IMG/VR virus record: IMGVR_UViG_3300011616_000001
Span: 1 to 64,000 of that record
DNA from: a virus
Taxonomy: Duplodnaviria; Caudoviricetes
Length of the DNA stretch: 64,000 bases
Strand: one strand, 5' to 3'
The first letter of the stretch is position 1; every line of letters begins with the position of its first letter. Positions 7,804-51,723 of this stretch are shown one piece after another. The notes beneath the pieces are model-generated. The model searched no databases, was not told the DNA's origin, and was given only the letters and a program-made list of their open reading frames with translations. A program made the position numbers and the translations under genes.

Positions 7804-9500
7804 TGGCCGGTAAACGGATCAATTACCCATTGGCTTATAATCCCATCCTTGAATACTGGAACCTGATTGAGAGCGGCAAGGAAGTTGTCAGCAGGAAGAT
7901 ATACGTATGGTATCAGTATCTGGCGATTCAGGCAAATAATCCGGGTGAGTATTTTTATAGTCCGGCCAGAGCCAACCATGTATTGGAGTTTGCGGAGAAT
8001 TACTGCAAGCTGTCCAAGGGTGCCGGTGCTGGAAAAGCAGTGCAGCTTGAATTATGGGAAAAAGCACACCTGGCGGCGGTGTTTGGATTTGTAGACATTA
8101 ATGGGTATCGTCAGTGCCGGGAATCGGTGCTGATCGTTGGTAAGAAAAACGGTAAGTCTCTGCTGGCATCCATTGTAGGATTATATATGCTTGTCGGAGA
8201 TGGAGAGCCGGGGCCGGAAGTATACGCGGTCGCTACTAAAAAGGATCAGGCGAAAATCATCTGGAATGAATCAAAACGGATGGTCCGCAAATCACCGGCA
8301 TTGCTTAAGAGAATTAAACCGCTGGTGGCAGAACTATCAAGCGAACTTTACAATGATGGCACGTTTAAGCCGTTGGCATCTGACAGCGATACACTTGACG
8401 GCCTGAATGTCCATTGCGTGTTGATGGATGAAATCCACCAATGGAAAAACGGGAAAGCCTTGTATGATATTATGGCAGATGGCGTTACTGCCAGAGATCA
8501 ACCGCTTATTTATATTACATCAACTGCCGGGACTGTCCGGGAAGATATTTATGATGATAAATACGATGAGGCGGAACGGGTGATTAACGGCCTGTTTGAT
8601 GAGGTGGGATACAAAGATCCACATTTCTATCCATTCATTTATGAGCTTGACAGCCGGAAGGAATGGACGGACCCGGACAGCTGGAAGAAAGCAAATCCCG
8701 GACTTGGAACCATAAAGAAACTGGATACCCTGGCATCCAAGGTGTCAAAGGCAAAAGAAAACCCAAAGCTGGTTAAAAATCTTGTATGCAAAGAGTTTAA
8801 TATCCGAGAAACATCATCAGAAGCATGGCTGACATTTGAACAATTAAATAATACGCTCCTTTTTGATTTGGAGCAGTTAAAACCGAGGTATGGAATCGGC
8901 GGGTGCGATTTATCCAGCACAACCGATCTGACAAATGCCACGGTTATTTTTATGGTTCCGGGAGATGAAAACATCTATGTGCTACAAATGTACTGGTTGC
9001 CGGAGGACTTATTAGAGCAGCGTGTCCGGGAAGATAAGATACCATATGATTTATGGGCGGAGCAACAGCTGCTTAGAACCTGTCCGGGTAACAAAGTCCA
9101 TTATAAGTATGTGAAGGAATGGTATGAAGAGGTTCAGAACGAACTTGATATCTACCTGTTTAAATGTGGGTATGACAGCTGGTCAGCTACCTACTTTGTC
9201 GAAGATATGAAAAATGCATTCGGCCCGGTGGTGATGGAGCCAGTTATTCAGGGAAAGAAAACCTTGTCAAGTCCGATGAAATCTTTAGGCGCTGATCTGG
9301 AACGAAAGAAGATTATTTACAATAATAATCCAATCCTTAAATGGTGTTTGGCGAATACTTCCGTGGATATTGACCGGAATGATAACATTCAGCCCTGTAA
9401 AGGTAACTTGGGAACCAGACGAATAGACGGACTGGCCGGACTTTTGGATGCTTATGTGATCCTTGAAAACAATCTGGAAGAGTATTTATCAATGATATAG
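7803..9500 (+). CDS. terL: Terminase large subunit
   Basis: Walker A GKKNGKS, Walker B MDEIH, nuclease DLS and RIDG motifs. Confidence 0.95.
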   Translation: MAGKRINYPLAYNPILEYWNLIESGKEVVSRKIYVWYQYLAIQANNPGEYFYSPARANHVLEFAENYCKLSKGAGAGKAVQLELWEKAHLAAVFGFVDINGYRQCRESVLIVGKKNGKSLLASIVGLYMLVGDGEPGPEVYAVATKKDQAKIIWNESKRMVRKSPALLKRIKPLVAELSSELYNDGTFKPLASDSDTLDGLNVHCVLMDEIHQWKNGKALYDIMADGVTARDQPLIYITSTAGTVREDIYDDKYDEAERVINGLFDEVGYKDPHFYPFIYELDSRKEWTDPDSWKKANPGLGTIKKLDTLASKVSKAKENPKLVKNLVCKEFNIRETSSEAWLTFEQLNNTLLFDLEQLKPRYGIGGCDLSSTTDLTNATVIFMVPGDENIYVLQMYWLPEDLLEQRVREDKIPYDLWAEQQLLRTCPGNKVHYKYVKEWYEEVQNELDIYLFKCGYDSWSATYFVEDMKNAFGPVVMEPVIQGKKTLSSPMKSLGADLERKKIIYNNNPILKWCLANTSVDIDRNDNIQPCKGNLGTRRIDGLAGLLDAYVILENNLEEYLSMI

Positions 9501-23789: not shown

Positions 23790-26700
23790 TTAACGATGTC
23801 TCGAAGTTGGTTTTCCGATTTGCTGCATTACTGCGGCACGGAGGCCACCTTTTAAAATTCCTTCAGCAAGTTGGTCAGGGTTATCACACCTTTCGATTTT
23901 GATATCACCGAAGGTGAAAGTTGTAGAGTCACCAGATCCTCTTGTAGACAACTGTCCTTGATCGAACGTTGGTGGAATAAAATGAGAAATAGGGGCAGCA
24001 GCAGCTGAGAGATTTTTCAGTAACATAGCTTGCTGATCATCATTTAGCACAGCTTCGCCACGATGGGCGATGATTGGGACTGCATTGTTGATATCTTCAA
24101 TTGGCTGACTCGAGAATAATCTGAGTAATCGTTCACGCTTTGTTTCGTTGCCTGTACCGACAAGTCCATTCTCAATACCGTCAGCATAAAGATCGTTCTC
24201 GATAGGTATAGAGTCATTACCATAACCAGAAAAGATATCATTTAATGAACCACCCCAGTTACCCCAAGGAGAATCATCATCATCGTCGTCATCATCGCTG
24301 CTCCGTCTACTGTTCATTTCGTCCAAAGCATCTTCAAGATTATCACGGACATCTTCCAGAATATATTTGATATCATTGACATCAGTGGTTAGCTGTTCCC
24401 AACTGGTCATATATTCAGAAATCAGCCCAGCATTCTCATTATATTGCCTGAATGAATCGATCAATTCTTCACCGGCAGTGATAAGTGCATCCTGAACAGT
24501 GGTTAGGATACTGTCTGCGTTGGCCTCGGCCCCAGTAGAAGCGGAGAGGAAGTCGAATACATTGTTCAGATTATCCATGCCGGACATCTTTTGATTCATT
24601 TGGGATAAGAGATCATTGATACCAGCAACCGCCTGATCATAGGTGATAGTACCTTCCTTGTAGGCGGCAATATAGTCATTGAGCAGGTTATAGATGTTCT
24701 CGGTTGATTCGATCTGATCTTCATACTGAGTCATCTGATCAGAAAGAGTTTGATACATTCCGGAGAACATGTCGTAGATATCGTCATCTTTGCCGCTTAG
24801 GACTTTATCCTTCCAACCTTCGCCCAGAATGTCGCTGGTAGCTGCTTCGTTCTTGGCCTGTTCGATTTTGTCTGCAATCTCTGACCACTTTTCGGAGATC
24901 TTTTCCAGAGAATCAATCTGTTCTTCGTAGCGGTCGTTGACTGCATCGAGTTCATCTTGGAGACCATCGATCTGCTGCTGAAGATTATGCTTTTCGAGAT
25001 TAGCTAGTGCATCTTGTAGACTTTCTTGAGCGTTTCTGAGGTTTTCAGCATTATTTTCATATACCACTGTGCCCTCTCTTATTACCCGCTCCGTCTTCTG
25101 AGTATTGGCAGAATGAAGATCATAAAGCGCCTGTTCGTAAGCAGTCTGTAGCTGAAGCGCTTCATTCTGCTTGTTCAGTAATTCTAACCGCTCATTTAAT
25201 ACATCAATCTGAGCCTGATTCTTTTCTTTCTCCAGATCACGCTCTTCTTCAAGCAAATCAATCTGCTCCTGGATAGCATTTGTGACGGTTGAAATGACCG
25301 ATTCATACTCGCTCTGTACCTTAGACATAGCATCTAAAGCTTTCTGCAAAGCGGAAGAGTAGTCGTTAACGGTGTCCAGAGGAATCTGCAGCATTGCTTC
25401 ATTCCATTTGTGTAGATTTTCGATCATTGCGGACATTTCGGCATTGATAGACTGCATCTTGTCATAAAGTTTATTCCAGTTCTCGGAGCCTTCATCGTAC
25501 TCATCCATTACATCTTGGATCAGACCGATCTGTTCCTTATACTGGTCAATGACCTTCATGCCGTTATCGATAAGCATCTGGTAATATTCTCTATCAAGCT
25601 TTTTGCCCGATGCCTCCATTTCGGAACCCCAGCGCTCCATCGTATCCGTAATGGAGTTGATCATGTTCAGGATTACTTCCATGTTCTCAATTGGGAGATT
25701 CAGCAGCTGGTCTTCTACCTCAGCAATAGCTAAGTCAAGACCGGCCATATCCTCTTCCCAGCCTTCGATATCAGACATGATGTCATGATAGTCTTCGTCA
25801 TCCGGACTAGCGCCTAGCTCAGCAAGTTTCTTCTTTGCTTCTTTGATTTTCTGTTCATAAAGGGCGATAAGCTTTTTATTATTTGCAATTACCTGTTCAT
25901 ACGATTGAGAGCTGACTATCTTACCCTGAGCTACAAGCAACTGGTTTTGAGCATCAATCTTGGCATTAGTAGAAGTGATCCGGTCAGCCTGTTTATCAAG
26001 ATACTCTATGTTATTATCATAATAATTCTTGATGTTTTCGGCAGCTTCGGCTTCTAAATCGTTTTTCTCTTTGACCGTATCTTTGAGTTTATCATGAGCC
26101 GAAATTGCCGCCTCAATGTCCTTGGCTTCGTCACCGGAGTAGCTACTAATCTCAATAGAGCCGTTTTCAATTTTGTCACGGATTTCTGGAGCGAGTTTAT
26201 TGACCAGTTCTTCGTATTTACGTTGATACTCCTCGATAGCGGTCATATAGGTTTCAAGATGGATCTTATCAGCTTCGATGATCTGAGCTAGTGCGGATCT
26301 CCGGGATTCACTATAGTTTTCGCCATTGTAAATCATTGCGAAGAGATCAGCCATGGACATTCCTGCATTCTTGGCGATTTCTTGCAACTCTACCATGTCG
26401 GTGGTTATAGTAGAACCGTTGGCTTCAATGAGTTCTTTGGCGCGGTCGAATTCCTCTTGGGTTAGACCGAGATAGGACATTGCGGCGTTAGATGCATCTT
26501 TTTCTAGCTCGTCCCTCTGATCCTTTAGTATTTCAAGCAGGCGCTCGATCCAGTCAATTTCTGTTTCTTTGTCCTTGTCAGACTTGGATTTAGATTTGGA
26601 CTTAGAAGAGTTGGCGTTGTTGACTCTATCCACGTTTTCTTTTGTCCAGCCATAATTAAGACCATTAGCAAAAGCATTACCTTTAGCAAAAGCTTTGCCA

Positions 26701-29700
26701 CGAGAACCAATTTTCCCATTTCGCTGTAGCTGCTCAGTCTGTTTGTGATTAAATATTATTGCATCTTTGGGTTTATCAATAAACTCAGCTCCGTTATCAC
26801 CAACAGTATGATATGTTCCGCTGTGTGGGTCGACAATGGTTTCTTGTCCTAACTCTCCAACAAGGACTTTCTTTAAAGCTTTTCGATTCTTAATTCCTGA
26901 ATTGCCGTTCGCATAAGCAGTTCCATAAGCACCAGCAGCACTTTCTTCACCGATACCTTCAGAATCTCCGGTGACCTTAGCAGTAGCATTAACATGAATA
27001 TCTGCTAATACGCTTGGTAGTGCTTTGATTGCGGTTGCTAGATCGTCAACCTTTTTCTTCGCACCGTTTGCATCGGTTCCAACACCCTCAAGACTATCCC
27101 TGGTTTTAGTTAGCTCAAGTTTTCCTGCCTCACTAATAGCATCAGTCAGGGTGTCAACAGAGACTTTTGCATCATCGGCTTCCTCGGTGATTTTTAGAAG
27201 CCCAGCTTTTTCGGTGTCTATTTCGAGAGACTCAATACGTCCAAGGGCCTCTGTTAAGTCGTTGATCGGGACTAAATCTGCCGTTTGGAAAGACACTCCC
27301 TCAAGCATAAGCATTTCAGTAAGAGCCGTCTGAACATCTTCCTTGCTCTGACCAAAATCCTCCATCAATCCTTTAATTAAGTTATCGATATCAATATTGC
27401 CAGTTTCTGCATCAATCTTGATAAGACCAAGTTCTTTCAACTTCTCCATGTTGGCTCTGATCCGTTCTTCATTACCACTGGTCTCGAAGTCAATTAAAAC
27501 TGTAGTGTCCATCTCAGCAACTTCTCCAAGAATCTGATGAATTTGCTTGCCGCTGAAACCTAATTCCTCAAGATACCTCTCCAGCGTTTGCATACTCATT
27601 ACGGATTTGCCATCGAGATCTTCCATAGAAAATCCAACTAACTTGAATGCTTCAGCCAGTTCTTCGACATTGTACTTGACTGTACTACCGTTGATTTTGG
27701 ACGCTTCTAAGAACTCAAGAAAAGCCTCTTTGGAAATGCCAATAGCTTTGGCGACTTCTTCATATTGAGTGGGATCGAGGTTGAGTTCAAAACTTCCGTC
27801 CGACAATAATTGAGCAGAAGAGTTTAATTTCTCTAAGACACCGCTTTTCTGAAGATCTAACAGTGGGTTCATGATCGCTGCGCCGTTATTATCAGGATCA
27901 CTCCATAGCGACTGGAATTTCTTGACCTCGGCCCTTGCCGCATCAAGATCCATGTCATAAGAGCGGTCACCAAAGAAATATTCAAGGAGTCCTTCGGTAT
28001 GTTTGCCGAAATCACCTTTTTTTAGATTCTCCTGCAATGTCTTGAATTTCTCGGTAGAGTCAACGTAGCTATCGTTGTAGTCATCTTCACCCAAGACTTT
28101 ATTTAACTTGTCTTTTGCTTTAGCTACGCCATGCATTTCGTTGTCTAACCCACCAAGAACTTTACTTAAGAGAATACCGGATTCGGTTAAGCTTGCAAAT
28201 CCGTTTTCGCCATTGGCGGTTTTCTGGAGAGCAGTTGCTAAGTATTCGGCAGATGCTCCGGTCTCGTATAGAAGATGAGCCAGGACCTCGTTTTCCTCAG
28301 CTAATTCGACGACTCTATCTGCTGTGATGGAACTTGCATCTCCAAGGTCTTCAATGCTAGCGAAGTAGTCTTCGACATCAGAATCACCAAGTTTTCCTAT
28401 TTCTTTCTGCTTGATCCCCATGTCTTCAAGAGCAAAGATAACATCATCAATTGTTAACCCATACTCTTTTCCGAGTTCAATTAAGTCTTTGAATGCATTT
28501 TTACTATTTGGATCTTCAGCCAATAACTTAAGCTCTGTTGTGCTTTTTTTACCAAATACATCTGTTAATGAACTGGCTGATAAATTACGTTTATAATTAC
28601 CAACAATAGATCCAACACGATCAATCATATTTGTGTTTGCTGATAAATCGATGTTGGCAATTGCTGCACTTGGATTTTTAAGGGCGTATTGAAAATCATG
28701 AATCTGGCTGCTGGCTTTGTCAAATACTCCTTCGATAACGGATTCATAGCCTCTCCATTTGCCTTCAGTCAGATCAATGGAATTTCTAACTTCTCTTAGA
28801 TTGTCGTGAGCCCCAGTAATATCTTCTTTTGTGCCGGATGTGAGGGCCGTGTTGTAGCGGGTTACCGCTTCGGCGGCCAGATTGTAGTCTTCAGCCAGAC
28901 TTGATGTGGTCATGACTATATACAGTTTCTCATCTTCAACGATATCTTTTGTATTGCCCATGACTTCTTTAACAACATCTAATCCAGCACTGCCACCTTT
29001 TAAAATGCCAGTCATGTCTATTGATGTTCCAATATTCTCAGATTCAAACTCCTTTTTGACTGCTCTTACTTCAGTCATGAAGTCATTAATTATTTCTTCA
29101 GCATTTTCAACATCAGCATCTAAATATAGCTTGTAATAACCTTCGACTGCGGTAGATTCAGTTCGAAGACCCTTCTTTCTGTATTTTGAGACAATCTCAT
29201 CTACCATTTTACCGTCATCATTGTTACGGTTATAGCCATGCAGCGCGAATGTTCTTTTTTTGTAATACTCATCTTTGGCGGTGTTGATATCATCTTCTTT
29301 GCTATTCAACCAGTTCTCAGCCAACTGTTTATTTAGTTGAGTGATTACTCCCAGCTGATTAGCATATGCATTTGTGACCAAATCAATTTTGCCGTGCTCT
29401 TCACCATACTTATCATTTAACTCAGTTTGCAGTTTAAGAAGTTCGCTTTTGATTTCGAACTGTCTTTCTTCGGTAGTATTAGCCGCAGTCAATTCTTTGT
29501 AGAGCGTTTTGTATTTTTCTGCTGTATCATTGATTGATTCTTGCTCAGACCTCAGTGCTTGTAACGAGTCGTTGGCCGCGTCAATTGATTCTTGACGTTG
29601 CTGTTGATATTGTTTGTAAGCGATAGCTGCACCGGCGACTACAACAATTCCAGCAGTGAGGGCTGCGGTAAGTGTAGCAGCAGCGGCAGTACTGATTCCC

Positions 29701-30044
29701 ATCTTTGCAGCAAGGGCTGTGTGGAGGTTGGAGAGGGTAACAGTGACACCTTGGTTGGTGATCTTTGCACCAGTGTTAGCATCGGTCGCAATAGTGTTTT
29801 GTGCTTCGGCAACTGTCAGGCCGGACGTAGCGAGAATGTCGCCTTCGGTGCTAGCAGTCACAGCAGCCGTAGAAAGTAGCAGCGATTTTTTTTCTGCATC
29901 AAGAAGTTTTGATGATAATACTAGTTTTTGTTGAGAAGCATCCAGTGTGTCAAATAAAGCAGCAGCTCTCGTTATATTGTTTATATCTTCATTGCCCATT
30001 AGTGTATTGATTACACTACCCACACCTATTAGATTTTTAATTTG
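23790..30044 (-). CDS. Tape measure protein of prophage B, exon 3 (2,084 codons)
   Basis: Long helical ORF; GELGQE...VGDNGAEF motif; no SD before the TTG at 30047. Confidence 0.85.
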   Translation of the reverse strand, partial: QIKNLIGVGSVINTLMGNEDINNITRAAALFDTLDASQQKLVLSSKLLDAEKKSLLLSTAAVTASTEGDILATSGLTVAEAQNTIATDANTGAKITNQGVTVTLSNLHTALAAKMGISTAAAATLTAALTAGIVVVAGAAIAYKQYQQQRQESIDAANDSLQALRSEQESINDTAEKYKTLYKELTAANTTEERQFEIKSELLKLQTELNDKYGEEHGKIDLVTNAYANQLGVITQLNKQLAENWLNSKEDDINTAKDEYYKKRTFALHGYNRNNDDGKMVDEIVSKYRKKGLRTESTAVEGYYKLYLDADVENAEEIINDFMTEVRAVKKEFESENIGTSIDMTGILKGGSAGLDVVKEVMGNTKDIVEDEKLYIVMTTSSLAEDYNLAAEAVTRYNTALTSGTKEDITGAHDNLREVRNSIDLTEGKWRGYESVIEGVFDKASSQIHDFQYALKNPSAAIANIDLSANTNMIDRVGSIVGNYKRNLSASSLTDVFGKKSTTELKLLAEDPNSKNAFKDLIELGKEYGLTIDDVIFALEDMGIKQKEIGKLGDSDVEDYFASIEDLGDASSITADRVVELAEENEVLAHLLYETGASAEYLATALQKTANGENGFASLTESGILLSKVLGGLDNEMHGVAKAKDKLNKVLGEDDYNDSYVDSTEKFKTLQENLKKGDFGKHTEGLLEYFFGDRSYDMDLDAARAEVKKFQSLWSDPDNNGAAIMNPLLDLQKSGVLEKLNSSAQLLSDGSFELNLDPTQYEEVAKAIGISKEAFLEFLEASKINGSTVKYNVEELAEAFKLVGFSMEDLDGKSVMSMQTLERYLEELGFSGKQIHQILGEVAEMDTTVLIDFETSGNEERIRANMEKLKELGLIKIDAETGNIDIDNLIKGLMEDFGQSKEDVQTALTEMLMLEGVSFQTADLVPINDLTEALGRIESLEIDTEKAGLLKITEEADDAKVSVDTLTDAISEAGKLELTKTRDSLEGVGTDANGAKKKVDDLATAIKALPSVLADIHVNATAKVTGDSEGIGEESAAGAYGTAYANGNSGIKNRKALKKVLVGELGQETIVDPHSGTYHTVGDNGAEFIDKPKDAIIFNHKQTEQLQRNGKIGSRGKAFAKGNAFANGLNYGWTKENVDRVNNANSSKSKSKSKSDKDKETEIDWIERLLEILKDQRDELEKDASNAAMSYLGLTQEEFDRAKELIEANGSTITTDMVELQEIAKNAGMSMADLFAMIYNGENYSESRRSALAQIIEADKIHLETYMTAIEEYQRKYEELVNKLAPEIRDKIENGSIEISSYSGDEAKDIEAAISAHDKLKDTVKEKNDLEAEAAENIKNYYDNNIEYLDKQADRITSTNAKIDAQNQLLVAQGKIVSSQSYEQVIANNKKLIALYEQKIKEAKKKLAELGASPDDEDYHDIMSDIEGWEEDMAGLDLAIAEVEDQLLNLPIENMEVILNMINSITDTMERWGSEMEASGKKLDREYYQMLIDNGMKVIDQYKEQIGLIQDVMDEYDEGSENWNKLYDKMQSINAEMSAMIENLHKWNEAMLQIPLDTVNDYSSALQKALDAMSKVQSEYESVISTVTNAIQEQIDLLEEERDLEKEKNQAQIDVLNERLELLNKQNEALQLQTAYEQALYDLHSANTQKTERVIREGTVVYENNAENLRNAQESLQDALANLEKHNLQQQIDGLQDELDAVNDRYEEQIDSLEKISEKWSEIADKIEQAKNEAATSDILGEGWKDKVLSGKDDDIYDMFSGMYQTLSDQMTQYEDQIESTENIYNLLNDYIAAYKEGTITYDQAVAGINDLLSQMNQKMSGMDNLNNVFDFLSASTGAEANADSILTTVQDALITAGEELIDSFRQYNENAGLISEYMTSWEQLTTDVNDIKYILEDVRDNLEDALDEMNSRRSSDDDDDDDDSPWGNWGGSLNDIFSGYGNDSIPIENDLYADGIENGLVGTGNETKRERLLRLFSSQPIEDINNAVPIIAHRGEAVLNDDQQAMLLKNLSAAAAPISHFIPPTFDQGQLSTRGSGDSTTFTFGDIKIERCDNPDQLAEGILKGGLRAAVMQQIGKPTSRHR

Positions 30045-30066
30045 CAATACATCATATATGCTGAAG

Positions 30067-30095
30067 TTGTTAATCTTTAGCTTATATGCTAGAAT
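30067..30095 (+). promoter_or_regulatory. Promoter of the antisense cargo gene
   Basis: TTGTTA-17 nt-TAGAAT with extended -10 TG. Confidence 0.65.
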
Positions 30096-30116
30096 TTAAA
30101 ATGGGAGGTAATAAAA

Positions 30117-30482
30117 ATGGAAACAAAAAAAGAAGACTACGTTATTGTCACAGGAGAAACTGAATTAAAAGCTTTCGATAAAGGGAGAAAGATGTTTGAT
30201 CCTTCTATCTCAGGTTATTTTAAGTGTGAAGTTATATCAAAGACTGATACAGAAGCGACTGTTAAGGTAATTAAAGTTCCCCCACTTACCCCGGCAGAAG
30301 CGGCAGCATACAGGCAGTCACTATCATTACCACCAATAGTCACCTGTCCCTACTGCAAATCAACAGACACCAAAAAGATATCGGGCCTATCCAAAGCTGG
30401 ATCAGTCGCTGTCTGGGGAATCTTTGCTGCTGGGAAGGTGTCGAAGCAATGGAAGTGTGGGAAGTGTAAGAGTGAGTTTTAG
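30117..30482 (+). CDS. Small zinc-ribbon protein with hydrophobic patch (intron cargo)
   Basis: GGGAGG SD; CPYC...CGKC; AVWGIFAA. Confidence 0.8.
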   Translation: METKKEDYVIVTGETELKAFDKGRKMFDPSISGYFKCEVISKTDTEATVKVIKVPPLTPAEAAAYRQSLSLPPIVTCPYCKSTDTKKISGLSKAGSVAVWGIFAAGKVSKQWKCGKCKSEF

Positions 30483-30484
30483 GC

Positions 30485-30538
30485 AAATAAAAAGAGTGCT
30501 GTAAAATAGCCAAACAATCAGTTATTTTACAGCACTCT
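30485..30538. terminator. Bidirectional intrinsic terminator inside intron 2
   Basis: 16-bp perfect stem 30493-30508/30523-30538; on - strand followed by UUUUUAUUU. Confidence 0.8.
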
Positions 30539-30604
30539 ATTACTATTTAAATGATATATCAGATATTGGATAAATCGAAGTAGCATTATAATACCATTCA
30601 TTAT

Positions 30605-30853
30605 TTAGTGATTAATAAGAGGAGTGTTTACAACATATTCCTTAAAATTATCAAATATTAGACCTAATTCTACCCAATAGCTGACTAATCTGAGCATTCG
30701 TTGTGCTTCTGGCTCTACACCTAATTCAATTAATTTTTTAGATATTGTATCGATTGTGAAACGTCCACCGGGTTGTGACAAAGCAACATTATATACTATA
30801 AGATCATAGTCGCTTCCTATATTGCTGCTACGTTTAATTAACATATTACACAT
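30605..30853 (-). CDS. Small hypothetical protein, possibly winged-helix (intron cargo)
   Basis: GAGGGG SD overlapping the end of the HD gene; 82 aa. Confidence 0.7.
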   Translation of the reverse strand: MCNMLIKRSSNIGSDYDLIVYNVALSQPGGRFTIDTISKKLIELGVEPEAQRMLRLVSYWVELGLIFDNFKEYVVNTPLINH

Positions 30854-30858
30854 GGCAA

Positions 30859-32949
30859 TTACCCCTCTTGTTTAATATTTTTATAGATATCTATTTGATT
30901 ATCTAAAGTAGTTATTATTAGATTAACTGCATTTTTGGCAATTTCTACTCCGACACGATTTAAAAACTTGTCAAGATCCAAGTTCCTTTCATATTTCTTT
31001 GGTAAAATATAAATGTAAAATTGAGGGAAAGTATTATAACCCAAATTTAATACATTTCTAATTGAACTTATCTCATGAATAGAAACAACATTCTCTGAAT
31101 TCTTCTTTTGGCTATGAAACATAATTGGTTTGGTTAATCCGTTATTATATTTCTTTATAACACAGACTACGTCTTCAATCGAATTTCCCAAGGCTTCCTT
31201 ACTTTTATTTACACTCTCTTTTATTGCAGGATTTAAACCAAAAGGTTTTATAGAATACAATATCTTTATACTATTAAATATTAAGCCCTGAAATGTGTTT
31301 GAGTCGTTTTCGTAGTTTTCTGTAGCTGAATAGAAGACAGAAGCAACATCTTTTAAAAAAGGATCAATTGGAACTTTTGGTGAACTTCCCGATTCTTTAT
31401 CACTTAAATTTTGCAAGGATTTAATCTTACAATCTATGATTTCTTTATTGCTCATTAATTCATTTAAAATTGCTTTATCAATAATTAAGAAATCTTCTAG
31501 TCTTTTTATGACCGAAATATAGTACCGTTTATTCATTAAAAGTTCTTTAAGCTGTTTTGTTAAGTAATTATCTGGATTGCCAATATAATTGCTGAAAAAA
31601 TGCTTTTTTAATACAGTCAACAACCAAGAGTCATCCCATTGCGAAATTGCATAAGAACTTTCAACACCAGATATAGGTTTTAAAGCTTTCCACAACCCAG
31701 ATATGTCATTGGGCAATAAATCAGAGTATTTCTCTTCTGCAATTTCGGCTACCTCCTTCGCAGGTATTCCTACTTCCATTGTAGCTGCAGCTTCATTGTC
31801 TTCTTCTGGCATATCTTTATTCAGTTTATCTTTCAAATATGCAATACTGATATTGGTAATTACATTTTGCATCAAATAATCCGTTTTAACCGCATGATGA
31901 TGAAATATTATATTTTTATAAATACCCCATCTTCGTTCAAGAAAATCTTCCACTGTATTAACCACTTTTATACTTGGACAAAATAAATAATTTCGTTCTT
32001 CTTTATTAGTTTTGGCGCTTGTGATGTCTGCTTGAACAAGTTTCATACTACTAAATAACCTATCGTATTCAATAGTGCCTTTTTTTAATCCTGAGTTATA
32101 TGCATCTCTTGAAGAGTAGTCAAGTCGATCACCATCTAATGATCCATCGATAATAGCATGTATATCTTCAAAATCTTTCTCGGTAAAAATATCACAGGCA
32201 GTTCGAACGATCAAAACTTCAAATAATTGTTTATTATATATTTTTGCATTACTTGAATCACTTTCGTCAATATTATCGACCGAATCCCGTAAAATTCTTT
32301 CAGAAATCCTATTCCCCATTTGTTCGTGTAGTTTTTGTGAACCTGTCCCATTAAATGAGTTCATAATTTTAATGAATTCATTCATTTTAGGGGTTTTATC
32401 AGTTATCCCTGATATTATTTCTTTTACATCTTCTAATGCAAATTCTGCTACATGACTATATGGTGGATGCCCAATATCATGTAATAGAGCCGCAACTCTA
32501 ATAGCTTCATGAAGAATTACATATGTCGATTGATGATCAAGTGCATTTTTGGGCATATTGAAAAAATTATCAAACTCTTTTGGAATTTTTGGGATTTTTG
32601 CTGTACGAAGTTTTTCAAGGCGTTCCCCAAATTTATTCGCAAATTTATCTAATGCAAGGTTAGGTATTGATTTATTGAGCTTATCTTCATAATGCACAAA
32701 GAAATTTTTTGCATGTTCGGGATTAGCATTTTTGATTGAATTATAAAAAATATTACTACATAAATGCATTGTACCTATACTGTGTTCAAATCGTTTTGTC
32801 CTATTACATGGAAAGGTCATGTATACAGTGGAATTTTGATACACATCATGAAGTCGGTTAAACATAACATGCGATAAGACTTTTCTTTCCAAATTAGTTA
32901 ATTCAATATTTCCATGAATACTATCTGCTATGATGCCCCTTTTAGCCAT
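30859..32949 (-). CDS. HD-domain phosphohydrolase, SAMHD1/dNTP-triphosphohydrolase-like (intron cargo)
   Basis: DSIHG, RFEHSIG, LLHDIGHPPYSH, DRLDY; AT-rich. Confidence 0.85.
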   Translation of the reverse strand: MAKRGIIADSIHGNIELTNLERKVLSHVMFNRLHDVYQNSTVYMTFPCNRTKRFEHSIGTMHLCSNIFYNSIKNANPEHAKNFFVHYEDKLNKSIPNLALDKFANKFGERLEKLRTAKIPKIPKEFDNFFNMPKNALDHQSTYVILHEAIRVAALLHDIGHPPYSHVAEFALEDVKEIISGITDKTPKMNEFIKIMNSFNGTGSQKLHEQMGNRISERILRDSVDNIDESDSSNAKIYNKQLFEVLIVRTACDIFTEKDFEDIHAIIDGSLDGDRLDYSSRDAYNSGLKKGTIEYDRLFSSMKLVQADITSAKTNKEERNYLFCPSIKVVNTVEDFLERRWGIYKNIIFHHHAVKTDYLMQNVITNISIAYLKDKLNKDMPEEDNEAAATMEVGIPAKEVAEIAEEKYSDLLPNDISGLWKALKPISGVESSYAISQWDDSWLLTVLKKHFFSNYIGNPDNYLTKQLKELLMNKRYYISVIKRLEDFLIIDKAILNELMSNKEIIDCKIKSLQNLSDKESGSSPKVPIDPFLKDVASVFYSATENYENDSNTFQGLIFNSIKILYSIKPFGLNPAIKESVNKSKEALGNSIEDVVCVIKKYNNGLTKPIMFHSQKKNSENVVSIHEISSIRNVLNLGYNTFPQFYIYILPKKYERNLDLDKFLNRVGVEIAKNAVNLIITTLDNQIDIYKNIKQEG

Positions 32950-33704
32950 AACCCCTCACTTTTGTAATAACAGTATGTAAAATGTATTGTATTTACTTGA
33001 AATCAAAAAATGCTTAGTACTGTTATACGCGTAGTTTTTTCTATATATTACCATATATGCTGTGTTTTTTCTATAACTTTATTATTGTTTTAATTATTTT
33101 ATATCATTCTAATTACAATTTATCAAGCGGATTTTATCATATTTAGTCAACTTATCATTGATAAAAAAATAATAAATTGCATTTTTAAAGGTTGTCTATT
33201 TTTCTTTAACAAACGACTAAAAATAGTAAACAAGCCGCCTGACCTTTTCTAGCAAGGATTATCAGAGAGTCAGAAAACTCCAATAATCACTATACCTTAA
33301 AAGCATTCCCAGTAAGGTAGGGGATACTCTGAGGATCGGTAGTCGTTGAACATCCATTCCAATTTAACCTGTTACTCCTTTTTAGGGGGATATTGGTTTC
33401 GTAGACCGTTGGAATGTGTGCTGCTAGTTACCCATTGTCGTGTAGCACTTAGGACGTATTTGCATACGCTTGTATTTCACCTTATGCCAAACAACCCGTT
33501 TTTTCTGCTTTCGCCGCATATCACGTTTATCATTGCTGATTCCGTTGTAGCCGGGATGTTGTTAGGGGATTCAAGCAATTACTCCTCATGACGTTTATTT
33601 TAAAACTCCGTCTACACATAATTGTACTATGAACCATGCTATCATTTCCTTTTATGTGCGTGCCCAAATTAAAAATCTAATAAAATACCCTTCTTTCAGG
33701 GTTA

Positions 33705-34056
33705 AGCGAAGTTTTTGAAAAGTTTGAAGCCGCCCAGTCCTGCTAGGAGAGGAGTCAGGACGCCGACTTCTTTGACAATTTGTGTTAGGACATTGACGAA
33801 GGCTGTGCCACCATCAACAAAGTTTTTTAGGAAGTCTGAGCTTATTGCCGTTTGAGCAAGGCCTTGGAACGCGGCCTTCAGTCTGCCCAATCTAAATTCG
33901 AGCGATTCAGCATACCTGCTCTGTTCCTCCATAGCTGATCCGGAGGAATTCTTTGAATCGTTATAGGCTTTTTCTACCTGTCCGGATTGGAATGCCTTGA
34001 TAAGTGCTGCGATTTGGTTACCACGCTGTTTACCAGCAATTATTTCGAGTAGGTCT
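33705..34056 (-). CDS. Tape measure protein of prophage B, exon 2 (117 codons)
   Basis: Open frame DLLEIIAGKQRGNQIAAL...KNFA, continuing the TP901-type motif from exon 1. Confidence 0.85.
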
Positions 34057-35848
34057 CATTTTGTTCCGCAAGTTCATAACGCTTGCGAGTTATTGGCTTA
34101 TTCTATAGTTGATTAGGCTATAGATGGTATTTCTTTTATAATATTGAGTTTTACAAGTTCATCAAATAGCTTATATTCAATATCATCATAACAAGTAATT
34201 CTTATTAAGTATATTTTATTCTTGCGACAATAATCGTCTTTTATATTGTCATGGCTTACAGTTTTGGAAAATGAGTTCAGCCCCCAAACTGGACGAAAAT
34301 GTTGTTCTCCGTCGAATTCTATTAAGGTGTTATACTCTGGCAGATAAAAATCAAAGGGTAAAGGTCTTTTATCCTTGCAATCTTGGTATTTTTTTTGAGT
34401 TTCAAATTGATAGCCCCATTTATCCAACAGATTACTAATTTGTTTCTCTCCCCAATAAAATCTGCTGCATTTGGGACACGATTTACCTTTTTTAACCATG
34501 TGACTAGCATGGGATAGGTATATAAATCCGCATAATTTACATTGAAGCTTTACATTATTTTTCATGCCATGATATTCTAAAACACTTATATTGGGGACTA
34601 AGCGAGTTACTTTTAGAGAAAATTCGTCTAGAGTCAAATAATTATGAGCGGAAAGTTTTTCTAATCCACATAAATAGCAACCCCTTCCATTTAAAATATC
34701 CTGCATGGACTTTGTTGAAATAACATTGTGCTTAATGCAACGGCATTTAATCCTGGCAGACAGTTTTGTATAAGGTTCCAACAATTGTACATTAGGATTT
34801 ACTTCTGCGGCTTTTTGCATTACATATTGTTTGGGCAGCTGTCGCCCAAAACAATATTTACACCCCTTGATATCTCGTTCCATATTTTTCTGTTGCATAA
34901 GTTGTATACCAAAATCTTTATGTTTGTTACAGATGAATTTAATAAATATAATGCCGTCCATTCTAATCGTATCTATGTATGTAAAATCCTTTGACTCAGC
35001 CAAGACCTTATGTTTTTCTTTGTCAAGTGCAATTCTTTTCTTATTTCCATTTGCAATTCGCCCGCAGTGAGGACACCCCTTTCCCTCCAATAGATGGCCG
35101 AGAGTAGTATGTTGTTCCCCAATTTCTTCATGTATTTTGCATATATATTTTATTTTAGAACCAGCGTTGTGAAAGTCGGTTGCATCAGACTTGAGTATAT
35201 AGTTCTTTTTTTCTATATAATGAACAACATCATCAAATGAATACTTTTTGTTTCCGCTGGGCCTTTTCAATTTCATGTCTTTTCTCTTACAGGACACCGA
35301 GCTTAATGTTCTTGGGAAAAGAAGTACACAAAGTTCTTCATCAGACATTAATTTCCAGTTATCAATAATAATTTGTTCTTCTTGTTTCGTCCATTTCAAG
35401 TTATCACCCTTGTACTATTTATTTTTTGTTGGAAGGTAATCAACCTCCATATCACGCCAATAACATCTCTGTGTTTCCACAGACGGTCAGACTATTTCTT
35501 AACCACACTCTTTCATATAGAAGAGTAGCAGTCACACCGTTTCCATTTAAGGGGTTCTCACCCATACCATTAATTTGTACCGTACTCCTATTGCCATAGA
35601 TATGTATTCTCTGGTCTATGGCCCTTCACGGGGATAGTCGTTTGACTCATTCCTATTCGGAACTTCGCGCCCAAGCTACCATTGTCACTCCACTTAGGAT
35701 TTTGTCCATATGGAATCTCTGTCGTTGTTTCACTTTCGTTACCTTCATACCAGCATATTTCATCCGTATTGTGGTGACAGAGCTTTAGGTTTTACTGGGT
35801 TTAGATGTGTTGTTCTGTGCATATTTCTATGCACACAGGCAGAACTTT
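34057..35848 (-). ncRNA. Group I intron 1 (1,792 nt), IA-like
   Basis: P1 CAGGC/GCCUG, P10 5/6, P3 CACAUC/GGUGUG, P7 GACUA 35639-35635 / UAGUC 35494-35490, P9 CUGUG-GAAA-CACAG, terminal G 34057. Confidence 0.9.
34113..35399 (-). CDS. Intron-encoded homing endonuclease (zinc-finger repeats plus Vsr/DUF559-like nuclease)
   Basis: Four Cys/His modules; GEKQI...PFDFY...IEFDGEQH...LIRI. Confidence 0.8.
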   Translation of the reverse strand: MKWTKQEEQIIIDNWKLMSDEELCVLLFPRTLSSVSCKRKDMKLKRPSGNKKYSFDDVVHYIEKKNYILKSDATDFHNAGSKIKYICKIHEEIGEQHTTLGHLLEGKGCPHCGRIANGNKKRIALDKEKHKVLAESKDFTYIDTIRMDGIIFIKFICNKHKDFGIQLMQQKNMERDIKGCKYCFGRQLPKQYVMQKAAEVNPNVQLLEPYTKLSARIKCRCIKHNVISTKSMQDILNGRGCYLCGLEKLSAHNYLTLDEFSLKVTRLVPNISVLEYHGMKNNVKLQCKLCGFIYLSHASHMVKKGKSCPKCSRFYWGEKQISNLLDKWGYQFETQKKYQDCKDKRPLPFDFYLPEYNTLIEFDGEQHFRPVWGLNSFSKTVSHDNIKDDYCRKNKIYLIRITCYDDIEYKLFDELVKLNIIKEIPSIA

Positions 35849-37560
35849 GCCTGTTCAGTTTGAGAGATGCGATCCCAAACTTCTGCAATACCTTGTAGAA
35901 TCTCATACGTTGAACGGAAATTTCCTTGGTCGTCAAATATGTTGACAGTCCCCATTGTCCGATTAAGGATCTGGGTTTGAATTTTTGATATGGAACCTAC
36001 ATTTTCATATTCTTCACCTAATTCTTCGAGGTTCCCCTTCATTCCGCGAATACGCATTGAGAGTATTTTTAAGCTGTTTCCTGTTTCTGACGCATTTTGA
36101 GTTATCTCTGTAGCACCGGTTAACATCGCCAAACTCTCATGAATATCGTTTCCAGCCATGTTGAGTGCGGCAGCAGAGTTTCTTAGCCCCTCACCTAGTG
36201 AAGCTGAATCCGTAGCAAATTTATTGCCTAAAATATTAAGTGAATCAATAATATCTATCGCATCCGTCGCTTCGATATTGAACGACTTCATGGCCGTGAC
36301 CATATCACTTACAGCTGTAGCATCATCGACCTCGCCAACGTTTGAGTATATGGAAGAGTACTCCGCGAGTACAGCTGATTCATCGACATTGAAGCCCAGC
36401 TTTGCCCAGTTAGCACTCTGAGTAACGAAACTAGAAGTAGTACGCCCTAACTCCTGAGCTTTCTTGTTTGCATTATCAAGAAATCGAGAGTATCGCCTAT
36501 CCGTCTCATCCGTAACTTTATAGAGGTTAGTCATTGCCGTATCAACTTCATAAACTGCCGAAACCATTTGCCTGATGGTTGTAATGGTTTTCATTATCAC
36601 GGCTGTAATACCAAACCACTGACCAAACTTACTGGCCTGATCCTTGATACTATCCATAAATGACCTACCCAGCTTGTTTGATCGGCGGGCAGCACCTTCA
36701 ATATTCACAAACCCCTGTCGTATTTCTTCTAATCGAGCCTTGGTGATCTGAGCACTTGAATTCAACTCATTTAAATATCCGTTTATCTGAGATCCATACG
36801 CTTTGACACCCATAGTCTTTGAGTTCTTGTCAGCAAACTCCTTGATCCTGTTCGTCAAATTATATCGAGACTGCTCAGAGGCAAGCTTGGTCTCGGCAGT
36901 GGTTAACTGTTTTACCTCATTCTTGACCTTAGCCAACACCTGCTGATACTCTTTCCAGACTGCAACCTTATCCTTTTTGGTCAGATTGGTATTCAGTTTT
37001 TGACTGAGTGAAATGAGTGTTTCATAGTCCGTCTTTAGTCCGGGTGGGATGGCAGCAGTCGCCAACGAATTGTAATTTTTTGAAGCCTTGGATACATCTG
37101 AAGACACTTTACTTTGAGCAATAGCCTTATTAATTTTCTGTATTTTTTGATATTCGTCATCTAATGCCTTATTAGCGGCCCTGTTTTGAGCTGTAGCTTG
37201 TCTCTTTTCCTCGGCTCGTCTTGCTGATTCGGTGGCTTCTCGGACTCTGCCCATAGCGTTGATCAACTTGTTTTGGGCTTTATCTGCTTTTTCCGCACCA
37301 GAGACCGCTTGCTTATAAAATTCTTTAGCCCATTGATTAGCCTCTTTACTTGAGACCGCATCGCCCATCAAATGTTTTATTTCCTTGCTAAGCGTGCTCA
37401 CTTGATCGCGTACACTCTTTTTCGATTTAGCAAACTCCTCTAAATCAAGAGTTGCACTAAGTTTTACTTTCTCCATTAGAAGCTGTTTTTGAATTGCTGG
37501 TATACTTTTAGCATCAAGTTTAGCTTCTAATAAAATTCTAAAATCTGAATTACTTCCCAT
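35849..37560 (-). CDS. Tape measure protein of prophage B, exon 1 (TP901-type core)
   Basis: VDTAMTNLYKVT, ANWAKLGF, NKFAT, GNSLKILSMRIRG. Confidence 0.9.
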
Positions 37561-48342: not shown

Positions 48343-49860
48343 CTATCGGTTCTCCGCGTTCCCATTGTTTTCTCTGCCAACTTCTGTTGAATCTTGAACA
48401 ACTGCACCTTTTTCCTCTTGGGTGGGAGCACCACCTGCTTCACCAGCAGTACTTTGTATATTTGAACTAACAAGAGGTGTTGTCCATTTTTTTGATGACA
48501 AATTAAGAATGTCTTCTTCTAAATATGTCATACCAATTACCTCGCTGGGTGATAGCCCAAGAGAAGACGCATATTGCATTTTTACAGGCAACCCATATTG
48601 TGCAGCTTTAGATAATCTATTCACATGTTGATCAATATTAAAAATTGACTGGTCTGAAAATTTGATTTTAAAGCCATAGGGTAGATCCATTTTTTTTATT
48701 TTTTTATTGAATACCCGTTCAAATTGTTGTAAGAGTGAAAATGCTATTTCTTCATCCGGTTTAACAGAGAGGGTGAGTGATGAGCTACTAGTTGCTTTGG
48801 TTGATCCGAAAATAAGAGAGCTGGTACCTGAGGAAAACCAAAAACCTTCTTCAGCACTGACAACATTGTTTTTATCAGAAACCGCAGAGTTACTAAAAGA
48901 AAAATCTTGAACTTCAAATGGAGACAGGAGTAGTCCTATACCATCAGGGAGATTTTGAGCCATTTGTTCGTAATATTTTAATGCGGTTGCATATTCCATT
49001 TTAGGAACACCTTGTTCATCAACATCCATCTTGGCGGATAGGGCCTTGTAGTTGTCATTTTCGGCCTTAGCTTTCTGTAACATCTTATAGTCTTCAATAT
49101 CATATACGGATAATAACAGTCCCGTAAATAATGGGAGAGAATATACCGGATCAGATTCGTCCGCTTTAATACAAATTCCATTGCTGGGTTCAAACCATCT
49201 GTTCTTAGCGTCTCCCTTTATCTTTTTTTCTTTGTTTCCCTTATACTTTTCCCAAGCAAGGACAAATTCCTCGCCATAAACTTCGAGTAAATAAGTCTTT
49301 CCATTAAAATAATCCAAATCAATAGAAGGTACAAAAGTTCCATCTTCTATTGAGGAGATTTTGGCATATTGACTGTCAAATGGTTTTATGTAAAAAGAGT
49401 CATTACTTTCGTAAGTTAGACCATAGTATACGCCATCCCGAATAGCTATTGTTATAGCTTTTGCTGCCTCCTGTCGTAAATTATATTTCTCACATTCATT
49501 AATAACAAAAAGGTATTTATTTTTGTAGTCATTTTTCTTCTTGTGTGTAAATGCTACATTTGTTGGAATCACCGTATAATTATAAAGAAGGATAGTGGAG
49601 TAGTAATCGATCAAGCGTCGATAGTGACTGGAAACAAGATATAAAAATCCGCTTAGATTCCGGATTTCTTTCTCATTTTTTTGCGGATTCTCCAGTAATG
49701 TTACTATTCTGTCTTTTGGATATTTCTTATATATGACACTTTCATTTCGACTGTTAATAAGATCTTGAACCATATTCTTTTTTAAATTGGCAAAAGAAAG
49801 ACTGGCATAACGCAATAACAACTTATCTTGTTCTTCCTTTGATAATGTTTCGACTTTCAT
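48343..49860 (-). CDS. Portal protein of prophage B
   Basis: 505 aa following TerL; SPbeta YonE-like position. Confidence 0.75.
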   Translation of the reverse strand: MKVETLSKEEQDKLLLRYASLSFANLKKNMVQDLINSRNESVIYKKYPKDRIVTLLENPQKNEKEIRNLSGFLYLVSSHYRRLIDYYSTILLYNYTVIPTNVAFTHKKKNDYKNKYLFVINECEKYNLRQEAAKAITIAIRDGVYYGLTYESNDSFYIKPFDSQYAKISSIEDGTFVPSIDLDYFNGKTYLLEVYGEEFVLAWEKYKGNKEKKIKGDAKNRWFEPSNGICIKADESDPVYSLPLFTGLLLSVYDIEDYKMLQKAKAENDNYKALSAKMDVDEQGVPKMEYATALKYYEQMAQNLPDGIGLLLSPFEVQDFSFSNSAVSDKNNVVSAEEGFWFSSGTSSLIFGSTKATSSSSLTLSVKPDEEIAFSLLQQFERVFNKKIKKMDLPYGFKIKFSDQSIFNIDQHVNRLSKAAQYGLPVKMQYASSLGLSPSEVIGMTYLEEDILNLSSKKWTTPLVSSNIQSTAGEAGGAPTQEEKGAVVQDSTEVGRENNGNAENR

Positions 49861-49875: not shown

Positions 49876-51723
49876 TTATAATTTTCGTAAAACTGGCTGC
49901 TTAGACATGATGAATTTGGACGGATCAATGTATTCAGACGAAGGTCTTTCGATAATTTTACCCTTCCTCATACGAGCCAAGTACCAACAGAGGAGACCGT
50001 ACACGAAAACTCTATCATCATGCATTATATTCCTTTTATCTGGAGGGAAATCGTATCTTACATTACCAGCATTAACATATTTACACATGGTAACAATTTC
50101 TGTTTTCATTAGATCGATCTGAACTAAGGCGTTTTTCTCATCGAGAGATAGGTCGTATCGATTTTCATTTCCATCGTCATCGATAGAGATGATATAATCC
50201 TTCCCCTCTGAATCTGCTGGGAATGAAACAACCCCAAGCTTAGTCATTTTTTCGGCGGCATCAAAAATTTCGTTTCGATGAGATTTGGGATCTACCAATT
50301 TCATGATATCAATTGCATCTCTAAATCTTCGGGCCGTAGCTTCATTAGCCTTATGTGATTTATCTATGACACCTTTGTGTGTTTTTCCATCCTTACCTGT
50401 CCAGTTTTCAAGCATATAATCAGAAACACCACCAATCATTTGACCACCAGATCCAGAATCACAAATAACAGCCTCAATGTTTTCATAATCGAGTTTTTTG
50501 CGAAACGATCCATTATATTCTAAAAGAAGATCTTGGAATCTTTTTACCTGATCAGGCAGAATCATAGGTGTTTTTTTCTTTGTGGAAATATCAACTAGAC
50601 TTACGACATTAGCAATATTCATACACCATCCACGTTCCTCATCATCAAATAATTCTGCGATACCAATAATGCTGTTGTCATTCAATCTGGCAGAATCCCA
50701 TGCGATTAGAAAAAGTCTGTTCCCAGTATCATTGGTTAACAATGGTGGATTTAATTTTGTGTGTTGCATAATTTCGCGTCTTGTTAAAATCTGTCCCTCA
50801 TGTGAATCTGCGCTAAACTTATTGTATAATTCTCTTAACGCTTTATCTCGATTATCCCCCATTGCCTTATCAACCTTGTCCTGGCTAATCAATGCGGGAT
50901 ACTGTTCTCCATTGTATTTGGCTTTCATAACCATGTCGATATTGTAGTTACATACAAAATACTTAGGATCTCCCATGATCATTCGCTCAGAGAAGTATCG
51001 GAATTTTTTATAATATTCTGATGATGTATCTGATGCAGAGGATGCATACAATAGTTGCCGGGGAAGGCCTTTAGGTTCCAAGGTAATATCAACATTCCCA
51101 CCGAGTTTAAAGTTTTCATCCTGGTTTACGAAGTTTTCAGCCTGTACAAAAAGTTCATCAGAAAACCATCCGGCCTCATCAAAACATACCAAATTGGCTC
51201 TTTTCCCTTTTATATTGGTGATATCACTGTTTAGTGTGTTTATTTCAGCACCATTAAAGAGTACGCAAGTGAATGATGCAGGATTATGGACAAAGCCATC
51301 TGAGTTAACTCCGTTCTTTTTGAGCTCATTGAAAAATACATCTGTGCAACCAGAGAATGATTCTATTTCTCTTTTAGCTATCTTTTCGACCTTCTTGTAT
51401 ACCTCTTTTGCCTGATCACCAGTATTTCCCAGAAAATATGTAACATGAAATGGGAATAAGAGACTTCGAGTCATCGTATATACACCTAGTTTTGTTGTTT
51501 TTCCGGCATTCCTTGATTCGAGCCATAGTACAAAATCTCTAGACCAAGAATTGTAAAAAGCGAATTTTTGAAGGTCTAGTAATTCTATTCCCATAAACCG
51601 ACTTGTAAATTCAACTGGGTAAATTCGGCCCCACTGAATCACCTGGCAATATTTATCGTACGTTTCAAGTTTTCGTTGTGAGATCTCTTTCTGAGACGGT
51701 TTGTTGAATATAGTAACTGCCAT
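49876..51723 (-). CDS. terL: Terminase large subunit of prophage B
   Basis: SRNAGKT, FDEAG, WDSAR..D, HDDR. Confidence 0.88.
   Translation of the reverse strand: MAVTIFNKPSQKEISQRKLETYDKYCQVIQWGRIYPVEFTSRFMGIELLDLQKFAFYNSWSRDFVLWLESRNAGKTTKLGVYTMTRSLLFPFHVTYFLGNTGDQAKEVYKKVEKIAKREIESFSGCTDVFFNELKKNGVNSDGFVHNPASFTCVLFNGAEINTLNSDITNIKGKRANLVCFDEAGWFSDELFVQAENFVNQDENFKLGGNVDITLEPKGLPRQLLYASSASDTSSEYYKKFRYFSERMIMGDPKYFVCNYNIDMVMKAKYNGEQYPALISQDKVDKAMGDNRDKALRELYNKFSADSHEGQILTRREIMQHTKLNPPLLTNDTGNRLFLIAWDSARLNDNSIIGIAELFDDEERGWCMNIANVVSLVDISTKKKTPMILPDQVKRFQDLLLEYNGSFRKKLDYENIEAVICDSGSGGQMIGGVSDYMLENWTGKDGKTHKGVIDKSHKANEATARRFRDAIDIMKLVDPKSHRNEIFDAAEKMTKLGVVSFPADSEGKDYIISIDDDGNENRYDLSLDEKNALVQIDLMKTEIVTMCKYVNAGNVRYDFPPDKRNIMHDDRVFVYGLLCWYLARMRKGKIIERPSSEYIDPSKFIMSKQPVLRKL

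Follow-up and report, generated by a model that had tools for sequence, protein, structure and literature searches.

Prophage morons and defence hotspots consist of variable genes with their own promoter and terminator that occupy a fixed position between conserved phage sequences, and phage group I introns are usually viewed as selfish elements with a homing endonuclease as their sole passenger. Here, we analysed a window of 64 kb (the whole stretch of DNA under study), which is a portion of the 84.7-kb IMG/VR virus record IMGVR_UViG_3300011616_000001. A giant gene for a tape measure protein (TMP) on its minus strand is split into three open pieces, and the sequence between the second and the third of them, intron 2, is probably a group I intron with accessory genes as cargo. 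While the known moron and defence hotspots sit between genes, the slot provided by intron 2 lies inside the frame of an essential structural gene and would need RNA splicing. A likeness also exists to the intron of T4 sunY (nrdD), in which, according to work by Michel and co-workers in the early 1990s, the complete core reportedly occupies the 5' part, an open reading frame (ORF) is looped out after P9 and the 3' splice site lies about 1 kb from the core. However, the sunY intron is said to differ from intron 2 in its sense-strand homing endonuclease, its short P9.0/P10 contacts and its 3'-terminal domain, and it reportedly has neither an 18-bp guide nor exchangeable cargo.

Within TMP genes, introns of this kind have been described in Bacillus cereus-group prophages, where TMP-IVS1-3 are inserted in frame, pair with their exons through P1 and P10 and frequently have a stop codon where the intron begins (Tourasse and Kolsto 2008, PMC2504315). 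Like intron 2, they are of the self-splicing type, and some of them are devoid of a complete endonuclease gene. In size, however, they range from 200 bp to just over 1 kb, their P10 boxes are short, and their ORFs are confined to endonucleases or remnants thereof (PMC2504315), whereas the family of intron 2 exhibits a P10 of 18-22 bp, lengths of 3.7-7.1 kb and accessory or defence genes together with an antisense zinc-ribbon gene. Cargo other than an endonuclease is known from the IStron CdISt1 of Clostridioides difficile, an IA2-type group I intron that holds such cargo in its 3' part and whose splicing renders the insertion harmless; there, the cargo is an IS605-family element with TnpA/TnpB that moves the whole unit to many sites (PMC3984707). 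In intron 2, by contrast, no transposase was found, the insertion occupies one constant site in a single gene, and the cargo is variable. P10 itself has been described as a short sequence in group I introns (PMC3984707). Group I introns in TMP genes are therefore already known. In the literature searched, which did not cover most subscription-journal papers, there was no description of a guide as long as 11-22 bp, of an intron with an exchangeable slot for accessory or defence genes, or of the conserved antisense zinc-ribbon gene.

The coding sequence on both sides of intron 2 defines where the insert begins and ends. Exon 2 terminates with AAC TTC GCT at 33705 on the minus strand and is directly followed by TAA (33704-33702). 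Exon 3 starts 3660 nt further on, and its nominal TTG at 30047 is preceded by no purine-rich Shine-Dalgarno-like run and no visible start signal. At the predicted junction 33705|30044, ..AACTTCGCT is joined to CAAATTAAA.. (GCT|CAA), which reads in frame as ..KNFA|QIKNLI.. from exon 2 into exon 3. All three exons are open over 2772 codons and together yield a spliced TMP of 2772 amino acids (aa). For comparison, uninterrupted TMP genes are available from two relatives, L007 (1966 aa) and L015 (2139 aa). Exon 2 is 53% identical to residues 407-522 of the L015 protein and 40% identical to that of L007; the homology of exon 3 to L015 extends from about residue 523 onward, and the alignment resumes about 25 residues beyond the end of exon 2. 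In the junction region, the homologues read ..KNF-EQLKNAS.. (L015) and ..KNI-NNIRST.. (L007), compared to ..KNFA-QIKNLI.. here. As uninterrupted homologues have K-N-F-E-Q-L-K-N at this position, the predicted GCT|CAA join appears to be the natural one, and the alignment implies that the 3660-nt insert must leave to the exact nucleotide if a normal protein is to be made. A preliminary description of this DNA had already proposed the exon ends with the TAA, the reading frame, a length of 571+117+2,084 = 2,772 aa and a large third exon without a Shine-Dalgarno sequence ahead of its TTG. Re-reading of the coordinates bore these points out, and the in-frame join of the FKNFA|QIKNLIG type that it had put forward matches L015 and L007.

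The two ends of intron 2 are connected by a long complementarity. The 18-mer at 33682-33665 (minus strand) is, as had been claimed, the exact reverse complement of 30044-30027, which is preceded by G30045. Allowing up to two mismatches, this 18-mer is present at two places only in the 64 kb (0.04 expected), none of 100 shuffles gave two matches, and the pair forms the sole perfect long inverted repeat within 29500-34200. The duplex between this guide and exon 3 has a predicted energy of -20.8 kcal/mol, compared to a control mean of -8.3. Since the guide lies immediately 5' of the P1 strand, the arrangement corresponds to the geometry of P10.

Relatives of intron 2 occur at the identical TMP codon in many phages of gut Bacillota, with lengths of 1.15, 1.22, 2.2-2.5, 3.66, 5.4-5.7 and 7.1 kb. 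The insertion codon of this clade is constant, following K-N-[FL]-[ADG] or, in the L045 group, K-S-L-G. The 5' layout is likewise kept and consists of the splice site, often a small variable hairpin, a guide of 12-26 nt and then the P1 strand. Guides were evaluated in ten lineages, as the exon 3 starts of L070, L105, L110, L112, L113 and L115 were not confidently placed. In each lineage with a located exon 3, the exon begins right after a G and is complementary to the lineage's own, differing guide, a result that the homologue survey suggested in the preliminary description had been meant to reveal, with the cargo varying at the same time. The pairing comprises 18 bp (exact) in our 3.66-kb intron, 21-22 bp including wobbles in L002, L004 and L006 (5.4-5.7 kb), 11 bp (exact) in L003 (7.1 kb), 7 + 12 bp in L045 and L037 (2.2-2.5 kb), about 18 bp in three blocks in L117 (1.22 kb) and 10 + 4 bp in L120 (1.15 kb). 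Duplex energies in these lineages range from -13 to -30 kcal/mol, with control means near -8, and in 8 of the 10 lineages the true 3' site ranks 0-3 among about 700-1900 windows. All located joins preserve the frame, with x-[LIF]-K-x-[LV]-type sequences similar to those of intron-less homologues. Judged by these alignments, the covariation of guide and exon 3 over kilobases is most readily attributed to RNA pairing, and other explanations are hard to conceive. As the 1.2-kb members without cargo have a long guide as well, the predicted long P10 is a family trait that is untied to cargo size, and no adaptation of the 3.6-kb copy.

The relatives were collected by several searches. An initial scan with the R element and the P3' motif mostly gave chance matches in coding DNA, with only 9 true relatives among its 31 loci. 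The P5 region provided a 21-mer that recurred in 49 viral contigs and in 14 genome contigs, the latter from Lachnospiraceae, Oscillospiraceae, Erysipelotrichaceae, other Clostridia and Bacilli, and a degenerate R-P3' pattern identified a further 13 metagenome and 4 viral contigs. No match was obtained in a megablast search of 9 kb against the phage collection, and the exact 22-mer from our P8/J8-7 was not found in the metagenome contigs.

The predicted ribozyme is confined to the first ~450 nt of intron 2. R and S elements are present together with the order P7-P3'-P8-P7', as in textbook group I introns (PMC3984707). P3, an R-like 12-mer, GACUA at 33344-33340 and P8 are located where they had been placed before. 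A search restricted to the 443-nt core matched a single Rfam family, RF00028, on the correct strand and over the full length of the model (1-253; 33653..33280). An nhmmer profile of 18 relatives, from which our sequence was left out, gave a single match in the window (33677-33266, E=1.3e-78).

We then determined how well the fold is conserved by drawing the P1-P9 structure on our sequence, with the P3/P7 pseudoknot bracketed separately, and counting pairs on the alignment of 19 sequences; as controls, the 3' partners were slid by 1-3 columns, and 500 shuffles were made. Pairing was observed in 76.6% of the cells compared to 32-40% in the controls, changes on both sides in 58 of the 90 pairs (17-24 in the controls), and the covariation score was 0.316 (0.06-0.10 in the controls); none of the 500 shuffles reached the observed values. 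By helix, the paired fraction amounted to 100% in P1, 97.7% in P2, 89.5% in both P3 and P7 and 86.5% in P6. The alignment is sequence-made and not structure-fitted, and taking the structure from one member inflates the fraction of paired cells somewhat; stronger evidence comes from the numbers of double changes. GGC (33664-33662) can pair with the exon end GCU at the 5' splice site and would leave a U.G at the cut, in agreement with the earlier proposal, and this U.G is present in all 19 sequences. P1 follows the exon (GAU/GUC, GCU/GGC, GGU/GCC, or UAGGU with GCCUA), so that the middle pair covaries while pairing is retained in 19 of 19. The small hairpin in the P1 loop is found at the same place in relatives with a differing sequence. 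At the 3' end, the omega-G is G30045 here, and a terminal G exists in all ten lineages with a located exon 3. These findings support the assignment of intron 2 to a large group I intron family with a covariation-supported fold, and there is a high probability that it is real as an RNA element.

Behind the ribozyme, intron 2 holds three genes (Table 1). No homing endonuclease family was found among their products in Pfam and PHROGs, as had been noted before, and no transposase family was found for any cargo ORF, apart from sub-threshold matches of the zinc ribbon. Upstream of the cargo, promoter-like sites do not exceed the number in shuffles and thus constitute weak evidence. The HD-domain protein belongs to a large, unnamed and widely scattered family, and its PADLOC match to a dGTPase covers the HD motif only (residues 148-175, E=8e-7). 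Its best relative (56% identical) is encoded in an unrelated phage, where it forms a divergent pair with an 80-aa partner next to holin and amidase genes (L130, 3004-5341), which is a typical moron position. The occurrence of the HD gene and its small partner beside a lysis cassette elsewhere indicates that the pair behaves as a mobile two-gene module, for which a role in defence is plausible as a prediction.

In the larger introns, extra genes are inserted between P9 and the zinc-ribbon gene. The cargo comprises a GmrSD/NsnA-like protein (PADLOC 1e-28, Pfam 5e-22) and an S24-HTH repressor in L004, KwaA (2e-15), a KwaB-like protein and a P63C protein in L006, an HTH protein and a PemK/MazF toxin in L128, and proteins without assigned function in L002 and L003. 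The idea that the cargo serves accessory or defence functions is in line with the introns of relatives, which contain recognised defence genes; for the HD pair of intron 2, with its match restricted to the HD motif, this role is plausible only. In L006, the KwaA-like and KwaB-like ORFs (7371-8865) are convergent with an overlap of 14 nt; the published Kiwa operon is co-directional.

The zinc-ribbon gene is located in antisense orientation at the 3' end of every intron of the clade, and the C-terminal CPxC..hydrophobic..CxxC domain of its product is kept in all lineages. In the minimal introns L117 (5706-6167, minus strand) and L120 (1016-1462, minus strand), it is the only ORF, encodes 148-153 aa and abuts the 3' splice site. 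The protein matches no nuclease family and has many unnamed homologues, and two homologues chosen blindly were encoded in the same context of TMP N-exon, cargo, antisense zinc-ribbon gene and TMP C-exon. A language-model search returned a LITAF-like, membrane-inserted protein with a score of 0.77, and we treat the LITAF likeness as a lead only. The mRNA of the zinc-ribbon gene would be complementary to the TMP precursor.

Table 1 Predicted features of the interrupted TMP gene and its introns (positions within the window)
Feature	Position	Strand	Remarks
TMP exon 1	35849..37560	-	570 codons + 2 nt; PhageMin_Tail PF10145 (1.9e-21); aligned to the uninterrupted TMPs of L015 and L007
Intron 1, second group I intron	34057..35848	-	RF00028, 24.9 bits, E=2.5e-4 at 35607..35467
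TMP exon 2	33705..34056	-	1 nt + 117 codons; ends ..K N F A
Intron 2, whole (3660 nt)	30045..33704	-	U33704 to terminal G30045
Small hairpin in P1 loop	33687..33702	-	predicted fold; just past the in-frame UAA
Extended P10 guide	33665..33684	-	18 nt exact (33682-33665) + two possible U.G pairs
P1 3' strand (internal guide)	33662..33666	-	predicted fold; pairs with exon GCU + intron UA; U.G at the cut
Ribozyme core P2-P9	33258..33658	-	RF00028 alignment, covariation counts, leave-one-out nhmmer
P2	33658-33652/33621-33615	-	
P3	33588-33583/33335-33330	-	
P4-P6	33577-33351	-	
P7	33345-33340/33292-33288	-	
P8	33327-33303	-	
P9	33287-33258	-	
AT-rich spacer with promoter-like hexamers ahead of cargo	33000..33240	-	consensus scan only
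Cargo gene 1, HD-domain phosphohydrolase-like (696 aa)	30859..32949	-	PF01966, 25.4 bits
Cargo gene 2, partner ORF (82 aa)	30605..30853	-	pair of HD gene and ~80-aa ORF recurs in L130
Intrinsic-terminator-like hairpin	30488..30538	-	after the cargo genes; inverted repeat with 16-bp stem and U tract; -24.6 kcal/mol, z = -5.25
Antisense zinc-ribbon gene (121 aa)	30117..30482	+	promoter-like site 30067-30095
TMP exon 3	23790..30044	-	2084 codons (30044..23793) + stop

We consider it likely, with good confidence, that intron 2 is a cis-splicing group I intron at a fixed TMP codon, from which the cargo is looped out and whose 3' splice site is selected by a long P10. The interpretation as a cargo-carrying group I intron, already offered in the preliminary description, is supported computationally by the junction, the family, the covariation, the lineage-specific guides and the varying cargo. 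According to this model, late transcription would read through the whole unit, and the in-frame UAA just after the 5' splice site would halt ribosomes. The internal guide and the GCU at the exon end would form P1 with a U.G at the cut. As soon as exon 3 is present in the transcript, the stretch of 18-20 nt directly upstream of the P1 strand would hybridise to the initial 18-20 nt of exon 3, and the resulting, unusually long P10 would position the distant 3' splice site at the active site. Ligation of the exons in frame (..KNFA|QIKNLI..) would then lead to the 2772-aa TMP. The ~3.2 kb following P9 would represent a loop-out that ends at G30045 and harbours an autonomous accessory module with its own terminator together with the zinc-ribbon gene. 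In the lysogen, the cargo and the antisense gene may be expressed from their own promoters in a moron-like manner. Across the family, the intron may act as a neutral slot: accessory or defence genes would be exchanged in the segment bounded by the ribozyme and the zinc-ribbon gene, and the tail gene would stay unbroken.

Several observations weigh against this model. The record is a metagenome assembly with an estimated completeness of 70%. The match of the core to RF00028 has 17.3 bits (E=0.045) and stays far under the gathering threshold of 50 bits, which is a curated cut-off and not a biological feature, and no group I match was obtained when Rfam was searched with 18 kb or 2.9 kb surrounding the site. 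The exon side of P1 amounts to just 3 bp. In P7 of our sequence and its 8 closest relatives, G is opposite G, whereas all other family members have G-C at this position. Finally, the ribozyme and exon 3 are separated by the terminator-like hairpin, which is in TMP sense orientation. A search with group I covariance models, which had been recommended earlier, accordingly gave a full-length match but not a score at the threshold. As the isolated core matched RF00028 weakly, the Rfam blank in long stretches is not informative here; among 15 loci including the relatives L018 and L022, there was no Rfam match at the gathering threshold either.

The unusual P7, with G opposite G at the usual G-binding pair, and the low Rfam score may both be taken as signs that the P7 change has killed the intron, so that the TMP is truncated or produced in pieces and the phage is defective or uses the fragments. 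The lack of a homing endonuclease and the presence of two morphogenesis modules in the record, which may be a prophage region, point in the same direction. However, the P7 variant is common to nine diverged sequences that still show compensatory changes in P2, P6, P8 and P9, and it coincides with a coordinated change in the 5' strand: these sequences (type A) have AC before GACUA and G after UAGU, while the sister group (type B) has GA and C. P7 of the wider family starts with a G-C pair and shows compensated variants (GACUA/UAGUC, GAUCA/UGAUC, GACCA/UGGUC, GAGCA/UGUUC), and in the variant the adjacent C can pair with the G in question, leaving a bulged G. An inactivating mutation was therefore rejected as the explanation of the G-G. 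Due to its conservation, the variant is probably a tolerated or adapted form, with a putative effect on guanosine binding. Decay is further at odds with three exons that are all open, with an exon 3 that has no start signal of its own and with a match of guide and exon 3 that is still perfect over 18 nt, and we regard it as improbable. The perfect 18-nt inverted repeat around ~3.6 kb and the cargo that differs among relatives may also be read as a mobile element at the DNA level, with the repeat as terminal inverted repeats and the TMP gene restored by DNA excision. The right arm, however, encodes the conserved Q-I-K-N-L-I that is aligned to Q-L-K-N in intron-less homologues, and by this alignment it is genuine TMP coding sequence rather than the end of an element. 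The left arm starts 22 nt inside the insert and not at its end, neither a transposase nor a recombinase was found in the insert, and the insert opens with a covariation-supported ribozyme. The transposon reading was rejected on these grounds, and we judge DNA excision to be highly improbable.

A further possibility arises from the terminator-like hairpin, which is strong and located 450 nt before the 3' splice site. Splicing in cis would require read-through of such a sense-strand terminator inside the intron. Alternatively, a first transcript might stop at 30538-30488, and a separately made exon 3 RNA might be docked by the guide and spliced in trans. Organelles contain natural group I introns that are spliced in trans, the length of the guide duplex (-20.8 kcal/mol) would suffice to tether two RNAs, and long guides are a trait of the family. 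Yet the 1.2-kb cargo-free members have long guides too, and no convincing sense-strand promoter was found between the terminator and 30045, a stretch that is the antisense of the zinc-ribbon gene. Moreover, phage antitermination or phage polymerases commonly carry transcription past terminators in late operons, and in SPbeta the late genes are transcribed as one long operon by the phage's own processive polymerase YonO (PMC5467207). By analogy, late read-through of the terminator would be ordinary for morons within late operons. A bipartite intron therefore seems unlikely to us; if it existed, tail assembly would hinge on an RNA-RNA docking step that could be regulated by the phage or the cargo.

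With splicing in cis as the preferred explanation, many phages of gut Bacillota retain the ribozyme at a single codon of an essential tail gene, while kilobases of accessory genes are exchanged behind it, including recognised defence genes (GmrSD-like, Kiwa-like, MazF-like). If splicing indeed occurs, an RNA-based 'safe harbour' would join the known ways in which phages carry defence and moron genes, and it would explain why automated annotation displays many giant TMP genes as fragments. It would also provide a natural example of an extended guide that chooses a 3' splice site over a distance of up to 7 kb, which would be relevant to ribozyme engineering for RNA circularisation and trans-splicing.

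The same TMP gene contains a second insertion, intron 1, which by its sequence is a more ordinary group I intron than intron 2. It encodes a 428-aa HNH-type endonuclease (35399..34113; phrog_559 HNH endonuclease, 1.9e-56), and its removal would join the exons as ..TEQA-DLLEIIAGK.., matching the homologues. Placing the 5' splice site after C35849 results in a predicted P1 (CAGGC/GCCUG) in which C-G takes the place of the usual U.G.

A group of loci, L123-L129, exhibits the same layout at the TMP codon, with hairpin, long guide, P1 strand, cargo and antisense zinc-ribbon gene; the join in L128 (5826-6150, minus strand) reads KNFG|IFKTISG. No core was found in L123-L129 by the nhmmer profile of the intron 2 family, and none in L128 by Rfam. 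The intervening RNA of these loci may represent a second, unclassified ribozyme core.

Elsewhere, the record contains two complete, convergent morphogenesis modules at 1-21700 (plus strand) and 23790-63753 (minus strand). The small module comprises a terminase (7803-9500), a portal, a major head protein, a TMP of 597 aa and a tail protein, and the large one a terminase (51723..49876), a portal (49860..48343) and the 2772-aa TMP. The two modules could be adjacent prophages, a phage and its satellite, or an assembly chimera. An 891-aa ORF at 56492-59167 (minus strand) had no Pfam match; it matches phrog_8308, a family of unknown function, at 1.7e-92 and shows a faint match to a PHROG with the annotation RNA-dependent RNA polymerase. 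If this ORF encoded a YonO-like polymerase, it could explain how the terminator within intron 2 is read through.

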